From IMG/VR virus record IMGVR_UViG_3300031454_000017, positions 1-26,856 of that record: a DNA stretch of 26,856 nucleotides; one strand, written 5' to 3'. How positions within the stretch are numbered: position 1 is the first letter of the stretch; each line of letters starts with the position of its first letter. The notes below the pieces were generated by a model. It saw only the letters and a program-made list of their open reading frames with translations. It searched no databases and was not told where the DNA came from. Below, in pieces: positions 6,488 through 26,460 of this stretch. This DNA comes from a virus. Taxonomy: Duplodnaviria > Caudoviricetes. The position numbers and the translations under genes were made by a program.

Positions 6488-7780
6488 CTAAAAATTACTA
6501 AACGAGAAGCTCATGGGTTCAGACTCTTGAAGTTCAGGCTCGAGCATCAGCTCAGCCCACAGCCCAGTTGCGGCGTCCACAATGTCATCGTGCGGATCAC
6601 CTAGGCCAGTAAAGCCAAGCACCTCAGCAAGTACAGGCTCGAGCCACGGTTTATCTTTAGGTAGCAACACCCGCCCGGTATTCCAGCCTGCCGCAAAGGG
6701 TTGAGCGCGGGTGAACTTGTCGCCCGTCGCATTAAGCCGGTTGACTGTGACGCCTTCGCGGGCTAGAAACTGCTCGATGGCCTTTTCGGTGCCGGACATG
6801 TAAGAGGTGACGCGGCTGACACCCTTTGACTTGAGCAGCGCCAGAAACGCCGGGACTTCAGCCTGTACCCTGATAACGTCGGTGATATAAAGTTTGTCAC
6901 CGTAAGCACGGCCTTGAACAGCCACGGAGTAGTCAGCGTAACTTTTACTCGTGTACGCCCAGTCAACGCCCCACGCCTCACGGTAGCCGCCCTCGGGCAG
7001 GGCGTCGTAGTAGTAAGCATCAGAAAATACCGCGCCGCCGCGAGGACGTGGCTGACCCTGATACATCGCGGCGAAATCGTACTCACCTACCCGCGCTTTC
7101 TGCTCGAGCAGCCATTCAAGCGGCCTCGCCTCGGGCCAGAGCGCCTCGTCAGCGTCATTTATGGCGGGTAGGTTGATATTGTCCCAACCTTGCTTGATGA
7201 GACGACCCGATAAGTCCTCCGGATGCCAACGGGTAGCCACTACGATTACAGACGCGCCCGGATGCACGCGGGTCAGGGCCCCAGACGTAAACCACTCCCA
7301 GGTACGCTCCCGCCATAGCGCGCTCTCAGCCTCTTGTCTATTTTTTACCGGGTCGTCCACAACCATGAGCCCGTCCACGGCCGAACCTGTGAGCGGACCA
7401 CCAACGCCCGTAAACATGAGGCCGCCACCCTCAGAGGTGCGCCACCTGTCCAGAGACTCGGCCTCAAGCGTTAAGCCGGTGCGCTCGGCGGCAGCACGGG
7501 CAATATAGCTTTGGTCGCGGGCGAACTGTTGCGCGTAAGTGATGTAAGCGTGGCGTTTAGTAGGGTCGGCTAAAAGCAGCCACACGAGGGCGGCTAAAAG
7601 CGATCTGCTTTTGCCGTGCTGTGGCGGGGTACTCAGGACAGCCCGGATGCTCTCTGTCTTGGTGCGCTCAAGTAGCTCGAGGAGCGGCGCTAGGTGCTCG
7701 GGGCGGGCGAAACCAGGATAAGCGGCAGGAATAAAGTCGAGTAGAATTTGCTGAAACTCAGTTAAGCTCTCTACCCTCAC
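6488..7780 (-). CDS. terL: Terminase large subunit
   Basis: Walker A PPQHGKS, Walker B VVDDPVKN, ATRWH motif, nuclease GVDWA...DYS and HDDIVDA; start uncertain (GTG 7780 chosen, frame open to 7873). Confidence 0.92.
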   Translation of the reverse strand: MRVESLTEFQQILLDFIPAAYPGFARPEHLAPLLELLERTKTESIRAVLSTPPQHGKSRSLLAALVWLLLADPTKRHAYITYAQQFARDQSYIARAAAERTGLTLEAESLDRWRTSEGGGLMFTGVGGPLTGSAVDGLMVVDDPVKNRQEAESALWRERTWEWFTSGALTRVHPGASVIVVATRWHPEDLSGRLIKQGWDNINLPAINDADEALWPEARPLEWLLEQKARVGEYDFAAMYQGQPRPRGGAVFSDAYYYDALPEGGYREAWGVDWAYTSKSYADYSVAVQGRAYGDKLYITDVIRVQAEVPAFLALLKSKGVSRVTSYMSGTEKAIEQFLAREGVTVNRLNATGDKFTRAQPFAAGWNTGRVLLPKDKPWLEPVLAEVLGFTGLGDPHDDIVDAATGLWAELMLEPELQESEPMSFSFSNF

Positions 7781-8348
7781 CGCTTTCGTTAATGCGCTCT
7801 GCCACAAACCTTTCGACTTCTGCAAGCGCGGAGGGGCTAAGCGCGCCCCTAAGCTCTGTGAATAGTTGCTCAAGTTGCGCTTGCACCTCCATCTCTACTT
7901 TGAGTGTGTCGCGTTTGCCATACTCCAAAGGCATCCGGCGCTCGAGCCACCATGCCGCCGCCGTCCAGTTTGGAGGCGCTAAAGTAGTGGTGACTTTCTT
8001 TTCGACAAGCTCACCGGTTTTGGCAAACTTCTCGACAACCTGCGTCTCCACAGTCTGGCCGCCCATTCCGGCATCGTGGACAACTTTCACCTTATCTATT
8101 TCAGCCGTTGCCAGAGCTGTTTTTATAGCGTGAAAATACTGAACGTAGTCCCCTTCAGTTACTTTGGGTTTAGCATTAGGCTTTTGCTCGAGCCGCTCAG
8201 CTTCTAGCTCCCCACGCGTATACCAATTGCGGTGCGTTCGGTAGGTGATGCTGACAGAATCGCAGGCGGGGTCAAGCCTGTTCCCTGCCTCTATCAACTT
8301 GACTAGAGCGTCCCTCCTATCGTCAGTTAGCTTGCTAGGCTTTCCCAT
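7758..8348 (-). CDS. terS: Terminase small subunit
   Basis: GKPSKLT N-terminal HTH region, WTAAAWWLERR..EYG motif; immediately upstream of terL. Confidence 0.8.
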   Translation of the reverse strand: MGKPSKLTDDRRDALVKLIEAGNRLDPACDSVSITYRTHRNWYTRGELEAERLEQKPNAKPKVTEGDYVQYFHAIKTALATAEIDKVKVVHDAGMGGQTVETQVVEKFAKTGELVEKKVTTTLAPPNWTAAAWWLERRMPLEYGKRDTLKVEMEVQAQLEQLFTELRGALSPSALAEVERFVAERINESGEGRELN

Positions 8349-8365
8349 CTATCCCCCAAGACCAT

Positions 8366-8388
8366 AAAAAATGCGCCCCCATCGGCGC
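8366..8388 (-). terminator. Intrinsic terminator between the late promoter and terS (tR'-like)
   Basis: Minus strand GCGCC-gatggg-GGCGC-A-T6. Confidence 0.65.
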
Positions 8389-8425
8389 GGTTAGGTAAGT
8401 TGAGACATTAGTGTCGGATAAATCC

Positions 8426-8454
8426 ACTATAAAAGTACAGCGCGCGGTTGTCAA
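8426..8454 (-). promoter_or_regulatory. Sigma70-type late promoter (pR'-like)
   Basis: TTGACA (8454-8449), 17 bp spacer, TATAGT (8431-8426). Confidence 0.75.
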
Positions 8455-9029
8455 TTCACGCTGAACACATCGCTCACCTCAGTCACCTTGCACGCCCGAT
8501 ACAACTCCATAGCAACATCCGCTTGGTTCTCTGTAACTTGCCTGGAGTTGCGTCGCCATCCGCCAGGTTGGCTGACGAACGGTGCGTACTCGTGATGTAG
8601 CAGCTCGCACATAGGGCAAGCCTTTTGTCGGAGAGGACGCTCTACCTTGCGGGTCAGGTAAAAATGCTCGAGACCGCACGCTAGGCTTTTGAGTATCAAC
8701 CTGTCTCGTAACCTCTCAAAGTCGTGCTCTGCCAGAATGAGGTTATAGACAGTCGGCTCACCTACGCCCCAAAAGGTACTGACAACCAAAGCAGCGTACC
8801 CTGACATGCCCCACATGCTGCCTCGGTGCGCCCCCATGATGCGGAATGTCGCGCCGGAGGTTGGCTTATCGTCAGCCTCCTCTACTGTCTTTTCGTCGGC
8901 AGCGTTGTAAACCATTTGGTAAGGGTGACGGCCCCTTAGAGCCTCAACTATCTCATTAGCAAAATGCCTCGACTTGTCACGCTCTTGTTTTAGTTCAGCG
9001 TTCCGGGTAAGAGTCAAAGTTACTTCCAA
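8451..9029 (-). CDS. Hypothetical protein in the late-regulator (Q) position
   Basis: 192 aa; last early gene before the late promoter; CGLEH and CPMC motifs; start codon uncertain. Confidence 0.55.
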   Translation of the reverse strand: MEVTLTLTRNAELKQERDKSRHFANEIVEALRGRHPYQMVYNAADEKTVEEADDKPTSGATFRIMGAHRGSMWGMSGYAALVVSTFWGVGEPTVYNLILAEHDFERLRDRLILKSLACGLEHFYLTRKVERPLRQKACPMCELLHHEYAPFVSQPGGWRRNSRQVTENQADVAMELYRACKVTEVSDVFSVN

Positions 9030-9102
9030 ACCGTGCCGCTATACTAAACGTAGTGCCGCAGCGCCCTGCTCCCGCCAGAGTCGGGGCGCTGATCTAAATC
9101 CG

Positions 9103-18371: not shown

Positions 18372-18577
18372 GGCAGCACCTCAATAACGATGTAGACGAT
18401 GGCCTCTTGGTCGATATTGAATGCGCGCGGGTCGGTCTCACTGACACTCAACTGTGTCCTGGTCTTCGCACCCAGATTGATGTTATAAAGAAAATTTGCC
18501 CGCCTTTCGGGAATCTCAGGTAGCACAATCGGCTCTAGGCCATGCTTCAGAAAGATGGTGGCTTTGTACAGACTCAC
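18368..18577 (-). CDS. Hypothetical protein
   Basis: GTGA coupling; 69 aa. Confidence 0.55.
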   Translation of the reverse strand: MSLYKATIFLKHGLEPIVLPEIPERRANFLYNINLGAKTRTQLSVSETDPRAFNIDQEAIVYIVIEVLP

Positions 18578-18726
18578 GTCACCGCCCCGAAGTCTTTAAG
18601 CTCCGCCAGCGCCTCGGCAGCAGCTTGTGGGTTTAACTGCCACTCGGGATACTGCTCCTGCAGAAAACCGAGAAGTTCTGTATCCTCACGGGCAAGAGAA
18701 AGTAAAATCTTTTGCGCCTCGCTCAC
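18574..18726 (-). CDS. Hypothetical protein, 50 aa (MSEAQKILLSLAREDTELLGFLQEQYPEW...)
   Basis: Manual translation; GAGGAGG RBS; GTGA overlaps at both ends. Confidence 0.55.
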   Translation of the reverse strand: MSEAQKILLSLAREDTELLGFLQEQYPEWQLNPQAAAEALAELKDFGAVT

Positions 18727-18878
18727 CGGAACCTCCTCAGTCTTGCAATCGGATCGCCTTTAGGTGCGGGCTGCTCGACGCGAATATCGGCTTGTGTCAG
18801 GAGCCAGGGCCTCTCGAGGCGGGCTTGGTATCTGCGGATGGCCGCATAGTCGTTTTGTTCTCGGCGGGTGCGGGTCAC
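18723..18878 (-). CDS. Hypothetical protein, 51 aa (MTRTRREQNDYAAIRRYQARLERPW...)
   Basis: Manual translation; GGAGG RBS; GTGA overlaps at both ends. Confidence 0.5.
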   Translation of the reverse strand: MTRTRREQNDYAAIRRYQARLERPWLLTQADIRVEQPAPKGDPIARLRRFR

Positions 18879-19114
18879 TCACCAACCTCCGTTGCAATCC
18901 GAATAGCCTCTAGGTAGTCGCCAGCAGCAAAGGCAAGGCGCGCACGAGCGTAGAGCTTGCTAAGCGCCTCGGCTTTTTCTACTACCGGAAGTGTTGGTAC
19001 GCTGCCCACGAGCCCTCCGAGTCCACTCACGCCCACCCAGCTCGAGCCGATCTCGCGGCTTAGCTCTTTAAGCGCTTGGTTTGCCAGGTGCATTCTCATG
19101 TTGTGTTCGCTCAT
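18875..19114 (-). CDS. Hypothetical protein
   Basis: Start ATG 19114 (MSEHNMR...) with GAGG RBS and ATGA overlap. Confidence 0.55.
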   Translation of the reverse strand: MSEHNMRMHLANQALKELSREIGSSWVGVSGLGGLVGSVPTLPVVEKAEALSKLYARARLAFAAGDYLEAIRIATEVGE

Positions 19115-19260
19115 CCCGTCACCTCGAGCAGCAGCGCATACCGCGTCTTGACGCTCGCCCACGCACCGTGTCGGCTGTTGGCAAGGCCGGTTTAGCCCCA
19201 GCGTTTGTAATGGACGTGCCAGCGGTAGAGCTGACCGTCGGGGTGGATGATGACTCTCAC
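19111..19260 (-). pseudogene. 50-codon gene with an internal TAA at 19192-19194
   Basis: MRVIIHPDGQLYRWHVHYKRWG*TGLANSRHGAWASVKTRYALLLEVTG*; start/stop overlaps at both ends in the same frame. Confidence 0.5.
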
Positions 19261-19457
19261 AGCTCGCTCCTGTTTCGCCTTCGAGCATCGCGCGCACGTC
19301 TGCCAGCAGCCCTCGCCGTGTGCTTTTTGTAGTTCGGTTTGGTGGGGCGCTTAGCTGAGGTATTACGCGCAGGAGGACGCTGCTCACTGTCTTTTGCCGT
19401 TCGTACCACCGCCTCAATTTCAGCGATGGTCGGGTGCGTAAAGTCGTTACGGTTCAT
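19257..19457 (-). CDS. Basic hypothetical protein (MNRNDFTHPT...)
   Basis: GGAGG RBS; ATGA overlap at 19454-19457. Confidence 0.55.
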   Translation of the reverse strand: MNRNDFTHPTIAEIEAVVRTAKDSEQRPPARNTSAKRPTKPNYKKHTARAAGRRARDARRRNRSEL

Positions 19458-19555
19458 GCTGCTAACCTCCCCTGTTCCCGCCGCAGCACCGCCACCGCAG
19501 CCCGCTCGCAGCACCCATAACCCGCAGCGCCATTTGTGCAGCTAAAAAGTTTCAC
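19454..19555 (-). pseudogene. Displaced 3' end of the 20228-20590 gene, now a 33 aa mini-ORF
   Basis: [33 protein letters not shown] aligns with ...[25 protein letters not shown]. Confidence 0.7.
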
Positions 19556-20181
19556 AGTTTGACCGCCCGCTCGAGAGCCTGTTCAATCGGTAACTTCAAT
19601 TTTCGGTAGTAGTAGTACAACGAATATTCCTTTACCCGATTAGCTTCAGCTAAGGATCGAAATGTGTTGTACTTAATGCCTTCACAAACAAGCTGGACGC
19701 TTGATCGCCTGTTAATAGCTTGTTCTTTGGCAGTAGCCCATCGGCAATTTTCCGGACTGTATGGGCCATCGTTATCTATTCGGTCAACAGAGCAGGCCCT
19801 GCCTTTACCCGGAGCCGGACCCATATGCTCAAAAAAGGCGCTGAAGTCGTCCACCCAACGGTCACAGACTGTGATACCGCGTCCGCCATAAAGCTCCCAG
19901 CCTTTGTCATTAGGGTTGAAGCAACGCCCTTTGATATGCGTCCATGCTCGATATTCCTTCGTTCGTATCTGCCCATGGGTTGTGAACTGCCTCTTGTTTT
20001 TTTCTTTGTTATAGCAGCCACAACTAATCGTCGAACCTGCTCGCAGAGCATCCATATTAATTTCTTTTTCAGCACCGCAATCACAGCGGCATAGCCACTT
20101 AGTGTGCCTGTCTCGTTTAGGTGCCCTTGATATAACGACAAGCCGACCGTAACGCCTACCTGTATAGTCAATCAGCGTCAT
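19552..20181 (-). CDS. Free-standing HNH homing-endonuclease-like protein
   Basis: [56 protein letters not shown]; start ATG 20181; AT-richer than flanks. Confidence 0.88.
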
Positions 20182-20227
20182 GGGCTCACTACCAGAAGAA
20201 AATGCTTGAGGTCCAACAGTTTTGTAA

Positions 20228-20590
20228 TCACGCCACCCACCTACTTTTTCCTTGCAAGATCGCCACTGCTGCCTTTTCATCGCAAGAAAAACCCGCTGCG
20301 CCGTGGTGGTCATTCAGGCGCGCTCGCTCGATAGGCAGGTCGATAAGCGACTTCCCGTTAAAGTGCACGCCCAGCCCAGCGAAAAAGACCAGCCCGCCGG
20401 TAAGCGTCCGACCGTTCTCAAAGGTGATAGCCAGTTTGACGAAAGCTTTAGCGATGACCTCCGTGTCCTCGAAAGTGCAAACGCCTCTCCCGAGTTTTTG
20501 GGCGGTGCAAAAGCGGCGCAGAAACAGCAGCGGTGTGGTCGGCAGATCGGCGTGCGTAGGTAGGCTGGGTGTTTCGGCAAGGGTGGTCAC
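20228..20590 (-). CDS. Hypothetical protein (putative HNH target gene)
   Basis: GTG 20590 overlaps the upstream stop (GTGA); 120 aa. Confidence 0.55.
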
Positions 20591-20805
20591 GGCGTCAACT
20601 CGGAAGCTCTGTTGAGAAAGAACCGCGCTGTGTGTTCGTAACCGAACGCTACAGCCCGCTCTGCCTGGCAAAGGGTATCCGCCACTTTCAATGCCTGCCT
20701 GTAGTTTCCGACGTGCAAATAGTGCTCGGCCCGTTGTCTAGCAAGTTGCTCGAGGTGATGCAGGCTCGAGAGGTGCGTTGGCTGCGTTTGCGGTGAAAGG
20801 CTCAT
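20587..20805 (-). CDS. Hypothetical helical protein
   Basis: GAGGAGG RBS; coupled at both ends. Confidence 0.55.
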   Translation of the reverse strand: MSLSPQTQPTHLSSLHHLEQLARQRAEHYLHVGNYRQALKVADTLCQAERAVAFGYEHTARFFLNRASELTP

Positions 20806-20981
20806 ACGTCCTCCTCGTGCTCACAATCAAGTGTTTGGGGATCGGCGCGTACATAAATGCCGCTAGTCGTCAACGCGCCGCAAAAGCAACATTTTTCAGT
20901 TTCGGGATTAGGTATTCTTACCGGCCTACCTCTGTATCGTTTATTCCAACAGCCGAGGCAGATGCTATGTGTCCAGCTCAT
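20802..20981 (-). CDS. Small Cys-rich protein (MSWTHSICLGCW...)
   Basis: CLGC and CCFC motifs; ATGA overlaps. Confidence 0.55.
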   Translation of the reverse strand: MSWTHSICLGCWNKRYRGRPVRIPNPETEKCCFCGALTTSGIYVRADPQTLDCEHEEDV

Positions 20982-21061
20982 TGGCTGAGCCAATCGCCGT
21001 CAGCATCATCCACCAAAACTGCCAAACCACTTTCGGGGTAAACCAAAATTGTGCCTACCAT
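20978..21061 (-). pseudogene. 27 aa mini-ORF resembling the N-terminus of HNH-AP2 endonucleases
   Basis: [27 protein letters not shown]; compare the recalled G..ALVDDED..WLSQ pattern. Confidence 0.35.
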
Positions 21062-21654
21062 GTTTCTGCCTCTTCTCGAGACAGCCAAAAATGAATACCG
21101 TGTGTGCAGTCAACCCGTATGTCATCGTCGTAAGAGTCAGGTCGTGTGGGCTTGCCGACCTCGTAAATGGTGCTATGGCTGTGCCTGCCCACAGCCCGTG
21201 TTGCCTCTACGTCTGCTGTGAGGTAGACAGCTAAGGTTTCAACCCACTCAGCGCGGCATTTGCGGTTGATGAGGCAGCCTGTGCGTCTTGCCTCGGGCGG
21301 TATACGCAGCTTGGCGATACCCCCTTGCACGGCCTTCCAGACGATAAGCTCACCTTCTTGCGGTATTTGAAAAGCCAAGCCTTCAGCGCCTCTCAGGACA
21401 GCGCCACTCAGGTCAGCGCCTCTCAGGTCAGCGTCACTCAGGTCAGCGTCACTCAGGTCAGCGCCTCTCAGGTCAGCGCGGCTCAGGACAGCGCGGCTCA
21501 GGTCAGCGTCACTCAGGACAGCGCCTCTCAGGTCAGCGCGGCTCAGGTCAGCGTCACTCAGGACAGCGCCTCTCAGGTCAGCGCGGCTCCCACCATCGCT
21601 ATTTAGCCATTTGACGTGATCTGCCAAAACCTCTTTTAGCTTTTGTTTATCCAT
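21055..21654 (-). CDS. Pentapeptide-repeat protein with DUF5758-like C-terminal domain
   Basis: About 13 A(D/V)L(S/R)x repeats; C-terminal KCRAE...[14 protein letters not shown]. Confidence 0.88.
21385..21587. repeat. 15 bp tandem coding repeats of the pentapeptide array
   Basis: Units such as CTCAGGTCAGCGTCA and CTCAGGACAGCGCCT. Confidence 0.9.
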
Positions 21655-23648: not shown

Positions 23649-24443
23649 ATGGTTAGAGCCCCTACATTTTCCACCCTTGACCCGCCATATATCGGGTATG
23701 CCTACATGCCGTCCGAAGTAGAAACCGACGTCGAGACAAAGCGCGCGAAGATGCTCGGGGAGCTTGTCACCGAGTGGCGGCGCGCTAAAGGCTTTTCACG
23801 CCCCGAGCTTTTAACAGAACTGAGTAAGCACGGTACTGAGCTCTCTTATAGCCACCTTCAAAAGATGGAAAAAGGAGAACGGTCGCTGGCAAGCGCAGGT
23901 ATAGACATTCGTGAAGGGTTACGAAAAGCGTTTGGTGTTACACGTAGCGAATGGACAACAAAGACAGGACTCTATACGCCTGACCCTAGCGTGTTCGATG
24001 ATCAGGTTGTAATTCAAAATCCGAACTTGCGTCATGGCACGCGAAGCATTCCGAAATACGACTTTGTGGGTATGGGGCCGGGGGGTCGGGACGGTCGTGT
24101 TATCGGCTATGTAGACATTCCAGACACATGGAGCGGCGAATACGTCGCTTTCGACGCGATGGGCGACAGCATGGGGCCGCAGATACCGGACGGCACGACT
24201 TTAATCATCCGGCTGCAAGACCAATCTGACTTTAACGAAGTTATTGTGTGCTGGACCGATGAGGACGGAATGCTATGCAAGCTTCTGAAAGATGTTCTAA
24301 ATGACGGCACGCACGTACTCACATCGTTCAATCCCGCTTACCCGCCGATCTGGGCTCGAAACGTCAAGATTTACGGTATCCTTTGGGAAACGCGAAGCTC
24401 ATGGCGCAAGAATGGTAAAAAGACAAACGGTAACTACAGCTAG
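23649..24443 (+). CDS. cI: CI-like repressor (XRE HTH plus S24 autopeptidase)
   Basis: HTH LSYSHLQKMEKGER; catalytic GDSM and CK; SFNPAYPPI; true start may be ATG 23706. Confidence 0.9.
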   Translation: MVRAPTFSTLDPPYIGYAYMPSEVETDVETKRAKMLGELVTEWRRAKGFSRPELLTELSKHGTELSYSHLQKMEKGERSLASAGIDIREGLRKAFGVTRSEWTTKTGLYTPDPSVFDDQVVIQNPNLRHGTRSIPKYDFVGMGPGGRDGRVIGYVDIPDTWSGEYVAFDAMGDSMGPQIPDGTTLIIRLQDQSDFNEVIVCWTDEDGMLCKLLKDVLNDGTHVLTSFNPAYPPIWARNVKIYGILWETRSSWRKNGKKTNGNYS

Positions 24444-24456
24444 TTTAGGAGGCATA

Positions 24457-25248
24457 ATGCAATCGGCCCGCACTTTCTTAGCTGCAATATCTCTTATCTT
24501 GTTTACCCTGAGCTGGGCGCAAGACAATCCTGTTCAGGTTTCCATTAGAGCCTTTATTGTGGCGGCAGATGGCACGCTTGCCGAGTCAACTACTGCCGAA
24601 GCAGGCGACCTTATTGAGTATCAAGTTAAAGCAACGAATATAGGCGAGACCACACTGCCCCCTGAATCCGTGAGCGTAGTTGGTCCTGTCCCCGAATCTT
24701 CGACTTTTGTAAGCGGCTCCACTGTCCAAGATGAAAATGTGACATTGGAGTACAGCGAAGACGGTAGCACCTTTGACGTTACAGAACCAACCGAGGTTAG
24801 AGCTGTCCATTGGACACTTAATTACCCCTTTGAACCGGACCAAGAGGTTGATTTGGTTTATCGAGTAACCATAAATGGAGAGACCTCCGATAGCAATTCG
24901 TCCCCCTCTGGAACAGGTAGTGCAGAGGCTTTTACGCAGTCCATGTTTGGGCATCTTGGCGTAATTGAGGTTGCTTGTCCTACGGCGCTCGCTGACAGAG
25001 CAACGGGTAGTGCGGTATTAGCCTGTGGTCAAGTTGAGTCTAACTTTAGTCTTTTTCGTCAAGGCTGGGATTTATACGCCGATTATGAAAGCGAGGTGCC
25101 GGTTATCCCTGTACCTACAAGCGCATGGCGGTCTGATAACAGCGGTGTTTATAGTCGAGATTATAACCTTAATGGTGCGCCCTATTTTGTCAATTTTAAT
25201 GAGCTTACTGAAGGCCAAGGCCTTGTGACAATCATGCACGGTCAATAA
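24457..25248 (+). CDS. Secreted DUF11 (Ig-like) domain protein, moron
   Basis: AGGAGG RBS; signal peptide ending SWA-Q; AGDLIEYQVKATNIG...FVSGS...YSEDGSTF. Confidence 0.7.
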   Translation: MQSARTFLAAISLILFTLSWAQDNPVQVSIRAFIVAADGTLAESTTAEAGDLIEYQVKATNIGETTLPPESVSVVGPVPESSTFVSGSTVQDENVTLEYSEDGSTFDVTEPTEVRAVHWTLNYPFEPDQEVDLVYRVTINGETSDSNSSPSGTGSAEAFTQSMFGHLGVIEVACPTALADRATGSAVLACGQVESNFSLFRQGWDLYADYESEVPVIPVPTSAWRSDNSGVYSRDYNLNGAPYFVNFNELTEGQGLVTIMHGQ

Positions 25249-25254
25249 TTCATG

Positions 25255-25290
25255 GTTATCCACAGCCTTATTCACACACCCTCTCGAGCG
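25255..25290 (+). repeat. Paired DnaA-box repeat, copy 1
   Basis: G-TTATCCACA-GCC-TTATTCACA-CACCCTCTCGAGCG. Confidence 0.8.
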
Positions 25291-25293
25291 ACC

Positions 25294-25377
25294 CACCCGC
25301 CGCTGATAGCCCAGAACAACGATGATTTTGAGATTATCGGCAAAGTAGTATGGCGTGGCGGCCCATACCGCGCTTAG
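25294..25377 (+). pseudogene. Stranded 3' end of a second S24 repressor allele
   Basis: HPPLIAQNNDDFEIIGKVVWRGGPYRA*, followed by a TAGTTT..AGGAGGCA..ATG junction like the one after the intact cI. Confidence 0.7.
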
Positions 25378-25392
25378 TTTTTAGGAGGCAGC

Positions 25393-26460
25393 ATGAAACA
25401 AGCCATAATGCTCGGTTTGGCGTTTACGTTCATCTTCGGAGGGTTAGCTGCGTGCGACTCGACGTCTAGCAGCTCACCCTCCGAATCAGACGACCCCTCG
25501 ACTAACCCGCCCTCTACACCCGGCACGCCACCTGCGCCGACCCCACCTGAAGATACGGACATTTCGGTAAGCGTCAGCCCGAGCGCGAGTGAAGGCGTCG
25601 CGCCTCTACAAGTCATTTTTACTGCCACCGTTTCGGGCACCGTTTCGGACAGCTCTTGGTACATCAACGACCGCGAGATACAGACTAATGGCCCTCGCCT
25701 GACTTTCACGTTTAGGAATGCGGGCGAGTATTTGGTGACCTATTCGGTAACGAACGCGCAAGGGCAGGTTGTTAACGATGCCGTCACAGTGCTGGTCTCG
25801 GCACCCGCAGAACCAACGCCGCCCGGACAACCCACGCCCCCAGGAAACCCTAACCCGCCTGTGCCGGACCCACCCGAAGACCCCAACCCGCCCGTAGGAG
25901 GTGACGCCCCACAGATTACAAGTTTCATCGCAGACCCTCCGACGATTACAGCAGCAGGGCAGCCTGTCACGCTTACGTGGTCTGTTACCGGCACGACTTC
26001 GCTTAGCATAGACAAGGGCGTTGGCGCTGTGGCGGGCACTAGCACTACGGTCTACCCAGCAGCTACTACGACCTACACGTTGACCGCTTCTAACGCCGAC
26101 GGCACCGATGACGAAACCGCTACGGTCACACTAAATACGGGTGAGCCTAGCCAGAACCAAAAACCGACTGTTACCATTACTGGCGAAAAAGGACGGTCGA
26201 CAACCGTCGGCACAGAAGAAAATCTGGCGGCCACCGCCGCCGATCCCGACGGTGACACCCTAGCCTTCAAGTGGACCGTAACCAGCGGGACTGCTGCAAA
26301 CGTCGAGTTTAGTGATGACGCAGTTAAAGATACGACGGCGAAGTTTCTAGCAACGGGCGAGTATCAGTTAACTCTTACGGTAAGCGACGGTAAGGGCGAA
26401 ACAGCTACTGCCACCGTTACTTTCAACGTTATTACGTCCGTTGGTAGCGGAGGTGCATAA
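25393..26460 (+). CDS. Lipoprotein with PKD/Ig-like domains and Pro-rich linkers, moron
   Basis: Lipobox LAA-C; GVAPLQVIFTA...TF..AGEY.VT; APQITSF.A...VTLTWS; DPDGDTL.F.W...LTVSDGKG. Confidence 0.82.
   Translation: MKQAIMLGLAFTFIFGGLAACDSTSSSSPSESDDPSTNPPSTPGTPPAPTPPEDTDISVSVSPSASEGVAPLQVIFTATVSGTVSDSSWYINDREIQTNGPRLTFTFRNAGEYLVTYSVTNAQGQVVNDAVTVLVSAPAEPTPPGQPTPPGNPNPPVPDPPEDPNPPVGGDAPQITSFIADPPTITAAGQPVTLTWSVTGTTSLSIDKGVGAVAGTSTTVYPAATTTYTLTASNADGTDDETATVTLNTGEPSQNQKPTVTITGEKGRSTTVGTEENLAATAADPDGDTLAFKWTVTSGTAANVEFSDDAVKDTTAKFLATGEYQLTLTVSDGKGETATATVTFNVITSVGSGGA

Follow-up and report, generated by a model that had tools for sequence, protein, structure and literature searches.

A phage HNH endonuclease gene between a chimeric host gene and the stranded original end of that gene

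How can an endonuclease gene lie within the last codons of another gene and leave that gene whole, and why should a second version of the gene's end stand behind it? Both questions are raised by a locus in the window, as we call the whole 26,856-nt stretch of DNA analyzed here, a phage contig by the terminase, helicase, primase, repressor and antirepressor domains encoded around the locus. On the minus strand, an insertion within the last 24 codons of a small host gene leaves the gene whole, with a foreign end before the insert and the original end stranded behind it (Table 1). From comparison of the sequences, what was inserted at codons 97–100 of the 120-codon gene reads as a 771-bp cassette of foreign tail plus HNH gene, matching the 771 bp that separate the two tail copies. 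We regard the arrangement as a real feature and as a phage HNH version of a homing-element layout already published outside phages.

Table 1. Features of the cassette locus in the window, of the second cassette in the related contig L081, and of other loci of the HNH family with duplicated gene starts.
Feature	Coordinates	Strand	Remarks
Host gene, 120 aa, chimeric (resident body plus foreign tail)	20228..20590	-	identity to L081 falls after codon 100
Replacement 3' end, codons 97–120 plus stop	20228..20302	-	diverges clearly from relatives starting at codon 101 (20290)
Left junction zone, codons GAAG(F)	20288..20302	-	13/15 nt common to the start of the stranded copy
Spacer, 46 nt, host stop to HNH start	20182..20227	-	without strong Shine-Dalgarno or notable fold
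Free-standing HNH-family endonuclease gene, 209 aa, open	19552..20181	-	phrog_374 HNH endonuclease, E 2e-63
33-codon ORF, from the GTG overlapping the HNH stop to the end of the stranded tail	19454..19555	-	weak GGCGG 7 nt upstream of GTG
Stranded original 3' end	19454..19531	-	extra CGG codon; W118 to L; holds the next gene's GGAGG and ATGA overlap
Next gene, 66 aa, no family match	19257..19457	-	start signals inside the stranded tail
Small neighbor gene, empty allele for L081's second, unrelated HNH cassette	19111..19260	-	in-frame TAA 19194–19192
L081 cassette, 52-codon gene	8323–8481		followed by the HNH gene
L081 cassette, stranded copy of gene end	8967–9059		behind the HNH gene
Stub, HNH gene, intact gene	L002:666-3133		
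Stub, HNH gene, intact gene	L033:862-2346		
Stub, HNH gene, intact gene	L036:1905-3206		
Stub, HNH gene, intact gene	L040:2100-3133		
25-codon stub, HNH gene, intact 229-aa gene	L083:1864-3358		cultured Hymenobacter cavernae strain; possibly laboratory-accessible

Both tails lie where the original prediction had placed them, and over a 16-codon core they agree in 11/16 residues and 32/48 nt, with different codons for 5 of the 11 shared residues, as claimed. The stranded copy (19531–19454) translates as GAAGYGCCERAAVAVLRREQGRLAA followed by a stop. The next best 16-residue match in a six-frame translation of the window reaches only 7/16 (3 windows), so a match of 11/16 right behind the HNH gene is not due to chance. 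Likewise present are the next gene's GGAGG (19470–19466) and ATGA overlap, as well as a GTG (19555) that shares bases with the HNH stop. As to composition, the direction of the proposed contrast holds (GC/GC3 of 0.55/0.48 in the upstream tail, 0.71/0.65 in the stranded tail, 0.48/0.48 in the HNH gene and 0.59/0.70 in the gene body, the tail contrast being one of about 25 codons), but the upstream tail is not AT-rich, since its GC content, 0.55, is also the mean of the window.

In run X1, an independently assembled contig spans 19123–20874 with 0 differences. The run may be the window's own sample, so that the contig argues against misassembly without being independent support. No Rfam match up to E 1 was found in 18500–21500, and the HNH gene has no more than 46 and 20 non-coding bases on its two sides; for these reasons we take the arrangement to be neither a misassembly nor an intron. 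Promoter-like sites were absent from 19300–20700, where terminator-like sites occur at chance level only, and there is no notable hairpin at the HNH start (z 1.12) or at the GTG (z 0.60). Upstream of its start, the HNH frame stays open as far as an ATG within the host gene (20313). We rejected this candidate start because it directly follows a stop and because two homologues start near the position of 20181, which is taken as the start here.

Which tail is native was judged from relatives of the host gene. The host protein has no match in Pfam or PHROG searches, and its AlphaFold model (from 3 sequences) has a mean pLDDT of 36.9. Two of its homologues are close (P0002, 70%; P0003, 67%) and four are distant, at 32–40% (P0005–P0008). 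Both close homologues are 120 aa long and have a C-terminus of the stranded type, GWGCCERAAVAVLREQ plus KAWAA or GRWAA. The gene for P0002 lies on a related phage contig, L081, where it is contiguous (7270–7632) and has no HNH gene behind it; P0003 was seen as a protein alone. An HNH-less relative had been predicted to end in the stranded type of tail, as the gene of L081 does; the protein P0003 ends in the same way. DNA of host-gene relatives was found in neither viral_contigs nor genome_contigs, and in metagenome_contigs the only contigs were L081 and the window's own, L082; the polarity of the insertion is thus read against one empty allele with DNA context, that of L081, whose downstream gene differs from the window's.

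At the nucleotide level, identity to L081 drops from 198/240 nt over codons 21–100 to 37/63 over codons 101–121 (Fisher p 1.4e-4 for gene body versus tail), in agreement with the predicted history of insertion. Over codons 97–121, with the extra CGG of the stranded copy gapped, identity to L081 is 57/75 nt for the stranded copy versus 46/75 for the expressed copy; the residue is the same as in L081 at 19/25 codon positions of the former and 12/25 of the latter, and blastn aligns the stranded tail to L081 with 48/58 nt. Where the two copies are discordant, L081 agrees with the stranded copy 17 to 2 in codons 97–115 (p 7e-4) and with the expressed copy 5 to 1 in codons 116–121, a split picked after the data had been seen; codons 97–121 as a whole give 18 to 7 for the stranded copy. 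Because the stranded copy starts at codon 96–97 and the expressed copy is foreign from codon 101, both junctions fall in the GAAG codons; for an insertion at a single point, one expects the stranded copy to start where the expressed copy turns foreign, as it does.

The expressed tail keeps the 120-aa length and the W118 of P0002 and P0003, and its D104 is common to 4/4 distant homologues (P0005–P0008). The original prediction had described this tail as recoded. That description does not quite fit a protein sequence that differs from L081 at 13/25 positions and keeps an Asp found in 4/4 distant homologues; on these two grounds the expressed tail is most likely the diverged tail of another allele of the same gene family, and not the product of recoding in place.

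A second cassette lies in L081. Its HNH enzyme (gene at 8468–8965) matches Pfam HNH_3 (E 1.2e-11), has no similarity to the window's enzyme, and is encoded between a small gene and a stranded copy of that gene's end. The window carries this small gene without the HNH gene, and window 19202–19111 matches the stranded tail of L081 (8968–9059) at 87/92 nt, versus 51/81 nt for the expressed tail of L081. In this cassette the GGAGG and ATG of the HNH gene lie inside the replacement tail, and an in-frame ATG again overlaps the HNH end. Occupancy is thus reciprocal, each cassette having its empty allele in the other phage. An assembly prefix is common to the two contigs. Run X1 contains not only the occupied allele but also a contig, likely of the L081 type, that matches the gene body with 35 differences and skips 19259–20311. 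Relatives of the L081 enzyme were found at four loci, 0/4 of them with a flanking duplication. About ten bases into the matching stretch, the window's small gene reads TAA where the stranded copy of L081 has TAC, possibly an escape mutation and possibly plain decay. This TAA, also some ten bases from the presumed junction of the L081 cassette, is present in the X1 contig as well. Two further observations concern the surroundings: the region is strongly mosaic between the window and L081, and upstream in L081 a T5orf172/MUG113 (GIY-YIG-like) protein is encoded (L081:5442-6248), a third nuclease-type gene in this early region.

The window's HNH gene has an open frame and keeps every residue that is invariant across 81 aligned sequences, R133, Y140 and N144 (numbered from the residue after Met) being invariant in 81/81 aligned homologues. 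An Arg occupies the usual position of the HNH catalytic His, and a conserved Tyr follows seven residues on, a spacing that we take to resemble that of PacI. PacI itself has no catalytic His and uses a loop Tyr instead (PMC5714182, PMC3384342); the PacI-type His-Me finger nucleases (group 20, PMC5714182) are described as having the His absent and a loop Tyr as its proposed substitute, where the window's enzyme has Arg plus Tyr. One PacI-like HNH enzyme of a lactococcal phage was reported to give no marker exclusion when tested, as were four of six I-HmuI-like enzymes (PMC12724721). A search of PDB chains by sequence, up to E 1, returned no match to the window's enzyme. The family has 1110 matches at E 1e-40 or better and no Pfam match, and seems worth testing for activity. 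Among the best 120 of the 1110 matches (8000 candidates scored) there is no second copy of the cassette and no second occupied allele, the top relatives being 57% identical. Since no relative above 57% is among the matches listed, the cassette is known from one genome and its spread is a proposal only.

Other loci of this HNH family were surveyed for same-strand protein-level repeats between the two 300-base flanks of the homologous HNH gene. The masked, ungapped, two-strand test used here replaced an earlier gapped plus-strand alignment that was swamped by low-complexity frames. The viral set held 80 loci plus the window's own contig, 75 of them with both flanks and 63 distinct. The window scored 61; four of the 62 others scored 57–186 (L002, L033, L036, L040) and the rest at most 42, against a maximum of 45 in a null of 250 mismatched pairs and 0/154 non-HNH ORFs of the viral loci reaching 50. 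In genome_contigs, where one of 31 loci was skipped for a short flank, one of 30 testable loci scored 102 (L083, Hymenobacter cavernae). Gene-start duplications therefore occur at 5/92 other HNH loci versus 0/154 control ORFs (Fisher p 0.007, with the cut-off of 50 set after the null had been seen and the control ORFs being mechanical calls, some of them surely not genes), and about 95% of the family's loci are without such a duplication.

All five other cases have a short gene-start stub on one side of the HNH gene and the intact gene on the other, with the HNH gene on the opposite strand in three. The duplicated starts belong to genes for a HerA-like ATPase, a family 2 glycosyltransferase, a DUF7338 protein, a protein without assignment and, in L083, a product that by reading of its sequence is a probable endolysin. 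In L040 the duplicated start is identical in 12/12 residues and 27/36 nt. By GC content, the intact start would be the foreign one in L033, L036 and L040, with no difference in L002; in L083 the closest relatives (63%) are split between stub and intact start, at 50 versus 47 and 41 versus 43 of 75 nt. A search for an empty site of L036 returned only L036 itself. Five duplication-bearing enzymes, the window's included, are 42–52% identical and scattered in the 81-sequence tree; a single founding lineage for them was considered and dropped, as their common ancestor is the root of the tree.

We consider it probable, at roughly 0.65 and on the strength of these comparisons, that the locus holds an active homing cassette that works without splicing. 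In a co-infection, alleles without the HNH gene would be nicked or cut by the enzyme close to the GAAG codons (97–101). In the repair that follows, the gene body would provide the left homology arm and the stranded tail the right one, and the cassette would be copied, while the diverged foreign tail would destroy the target site in the occupied allele. The junction zone would accordingly be both the crossover and the predicted target region, by analogy with the yeast WHO elements, whose fragments start at the cut site. The stranded tail would likely persist as a homology arm and because it contains the ribosome-binding site and start of the next gene; this GGAGG and ATGA start are by themselves reason enough for it to be kept. 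The GTG that overlaps the HNH stop had been taken to relay ribosomes onward. A translational relay onto the next gene is possible, but it cannot be told apart here because that gene has a strong GGAGG of its own, and by a rough estimate an in-frame start overlapping a TGA arises by chance about once in four or five cases, because the base before a TGA is mostly A, G or T.

One rival is a one-off recombination scar. Such a scar, made by a homologous crossover in the gene plus illegitimate rejoining, would carry the HNH gene as a passenger and involve no targeted cutting and no immunity. The strong mosaicism of the window/L081 region fits it, as do the lack of a second occupied allele among the best 120 of 1110 HNH matches and a target gene of no known function; yet it gives no account of a right junction on the same codons as the left crossover, of end duplications at 5/92 HNH loci versus 0/154 other ORFs, or of the second cassette in L081, and we consider it unlikely. 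Still less probable is that a nuclease made the structure and homing was then lost, through one past mis-homing cut repaired from a diverged donor, with the enzyme now inactive or directed at another target and the tail kept for the next gene's start signals. The stranded tail does show decay (the extra codon and W118 to L), WHO10 elements are known to make one-off 3'-duplicating insertions at new loci (PMC7282813), and free-standing endonucleases of the T4 type cut hundreds to thousands of bases from their own gene (PMC2988022), all of which this account would accommodate. Against it, the open HNH frame, with all residues invariant in 81/81 kept, suggests recent activity.

Two further histories are very improbable. 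A local duplication of the gene end, with divergence in place and the HNH gene arriving between the copies later, would suit two copies in one genome, 771 bp apart. But selection should conserve the expressed copy, and yet it is this copy that departs from the relatives and the unexpressed one that matches them; the expressed copy also has the HNH-like GC3 and the Asp common to distant homologues. Least probable of all is a self-splicing intron or an assembly chimera: HNH genes are often found in group I introns (PMC2988022) and the window is a metagenome contig, but a group I intron is expected to have a structured ribozyme core, for which 46 and 20 non-coding bases are all that is available in a locus with no Rfam match; moreover, the upstream gene is already full-length at its end, and the X1 contig runs across the whole cassette.

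Returning to the active homing cassette as the favored reading, we asked how its layout compares with described systems. The original prediction had presented the layout as a precedent-free inference; published examples exist in the WHO elements of yeasts and in the mORFs of fungal mitochondria. WHO elements occupy FBA1 in Torulaspora and Lachancea yeasts, and allele-specific cleavage has been demonstrated for them (PMC7282813; bioRxiv 10.64898/2026.08.13.744650). Like the window's cassette, they have on one side of the endonuclease gene a chimeric host gene, intact but with its 3' end replaced, and on the other a stranded 3' fragment, without splicing; the fragment acts as second homology arm, and resistance through allelic sequence difference was established in that system. 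WHO enzymes are LAGLIDADG, intein-related and zinc-finger proteins, whereas the window's enzyme matches HNH PHROG families, and the WHO host is an essential nuclear gene, with fragments of ~400 bp and with tandem clusters, compared with a 120-aa phage gene and a 78-bp fragment here. Members of the window's HNH family also duplicate gene starts, unlike WHO elements.

In the mORF hybrids, reported for atp6 of Allomyces macrogynus and for atp6, atp9, cox2 and nad3 of Glomus (PMC3630166), with Phlebia atp6/cox2 and Ophiostoma rps3 hybrids discussed in PMC4019555, a foreign C-terminal segment likewise arrives with an endonuclease, and the native C-terminus is stranded and matches the element-less relative. 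The mORF enzymes are LAGLIDADG or GIY-YIG, mitochondrial and sometimes fused in frame to the host gene; the window has a separate phage HNH ORF. Because enzyme class and host differ, the window's element belongs to neither family, for all that its layout is like both.

The free-standing homing endonucleases of phages (T4 seg and mob, PMC2988022; Skunavirus HNHEs, PMC12724721) share with it the phage setting, the HNH fold, the lack of an intron and, as proposed for the window's cassette, protection by a diverged target allele. They are described as lying hundreds to thousands of bases from their cut site, or as splitting a gene in two (Aeh1 nrdA), and the accessible text describes no stranded duplicate end. 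The window's HNH ORF lies outside any intron or intein and is patchily present among related phages, and its insertion is inside a gene, not between genes. Homing elements usually target conserved essential genes, whereas this host gene is small and rare. The nearest phage precedent that we met is a GIY-YIG gene between the spanin genes of the T5-like phages Shivani and phiR201, with a changed i-spanin C-terminus and o-spanin N-terminus, both genes being whole (PMC6139136). The available text of that paper reads the case as a change of spanin gene architecture, leaves insertion versus deletion open and describes no homing element. An explicit phage description of the replacement-end layout was absent from the full texts searched, few of them subscription papers, and no replacement-end case appears in the accessible parts of PMC10448857, PMC3653736 and PMC4177764. 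In the accessible text of the 2026 preprint (bioRxiv 10.64898/2026.08.13.744650), the word phage occurs only within 'bacteriophages', in the introduction.

That preprint presents WHO elements as a rare third category of homing element, unique in restoring the host gene through replacement of its 3' half. If cassettes like the window's do home, this category would be common in phages, HNH-based and at work on either gene end, and endonucleases would directly give rise to chimeric gene ends, as well as to short orphan stubs overlooked in annotation. More tentatively, one could imagine that a class of homing cassettes that need no splicing, as yet without a name, is common in phages as a counterpart of WHO, that spans at least two unrelated HNH families and acts on either end of almost any gene (at ~1 in 20 loci of this family), with two co-occurring phages each targeting the other's empty allele ~1 kb apart and the TAA as an escape mutation from the duel; we think this whole scenario doubtful, if possible. 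The layout itself narrows the predicted cut site to a few codons, a prediction otherwise difficult to make for free-standing endonucleases, and for two unrelated enzymes the locus offers naturally occurring alleles, both empty and occupied. What it adds is this reciprocal empty/occupied pair and a first estimate of the rate of duplication within one HNH family. Replacement of a gene end is also brought about by elements of the integrase type, such as e14 at icd.

Elsewhere in the window, the early region encodes a pentapeptide-repeat protein fused to DUF5758 (21055–21654). Behind the repressor, two plus-strand genes (24301–26460) look like lysogenic-conversion or host surface genes; one of the encoded proteins has a PKD domain, proline-rich linkers and a start like that of a lipoprotein.
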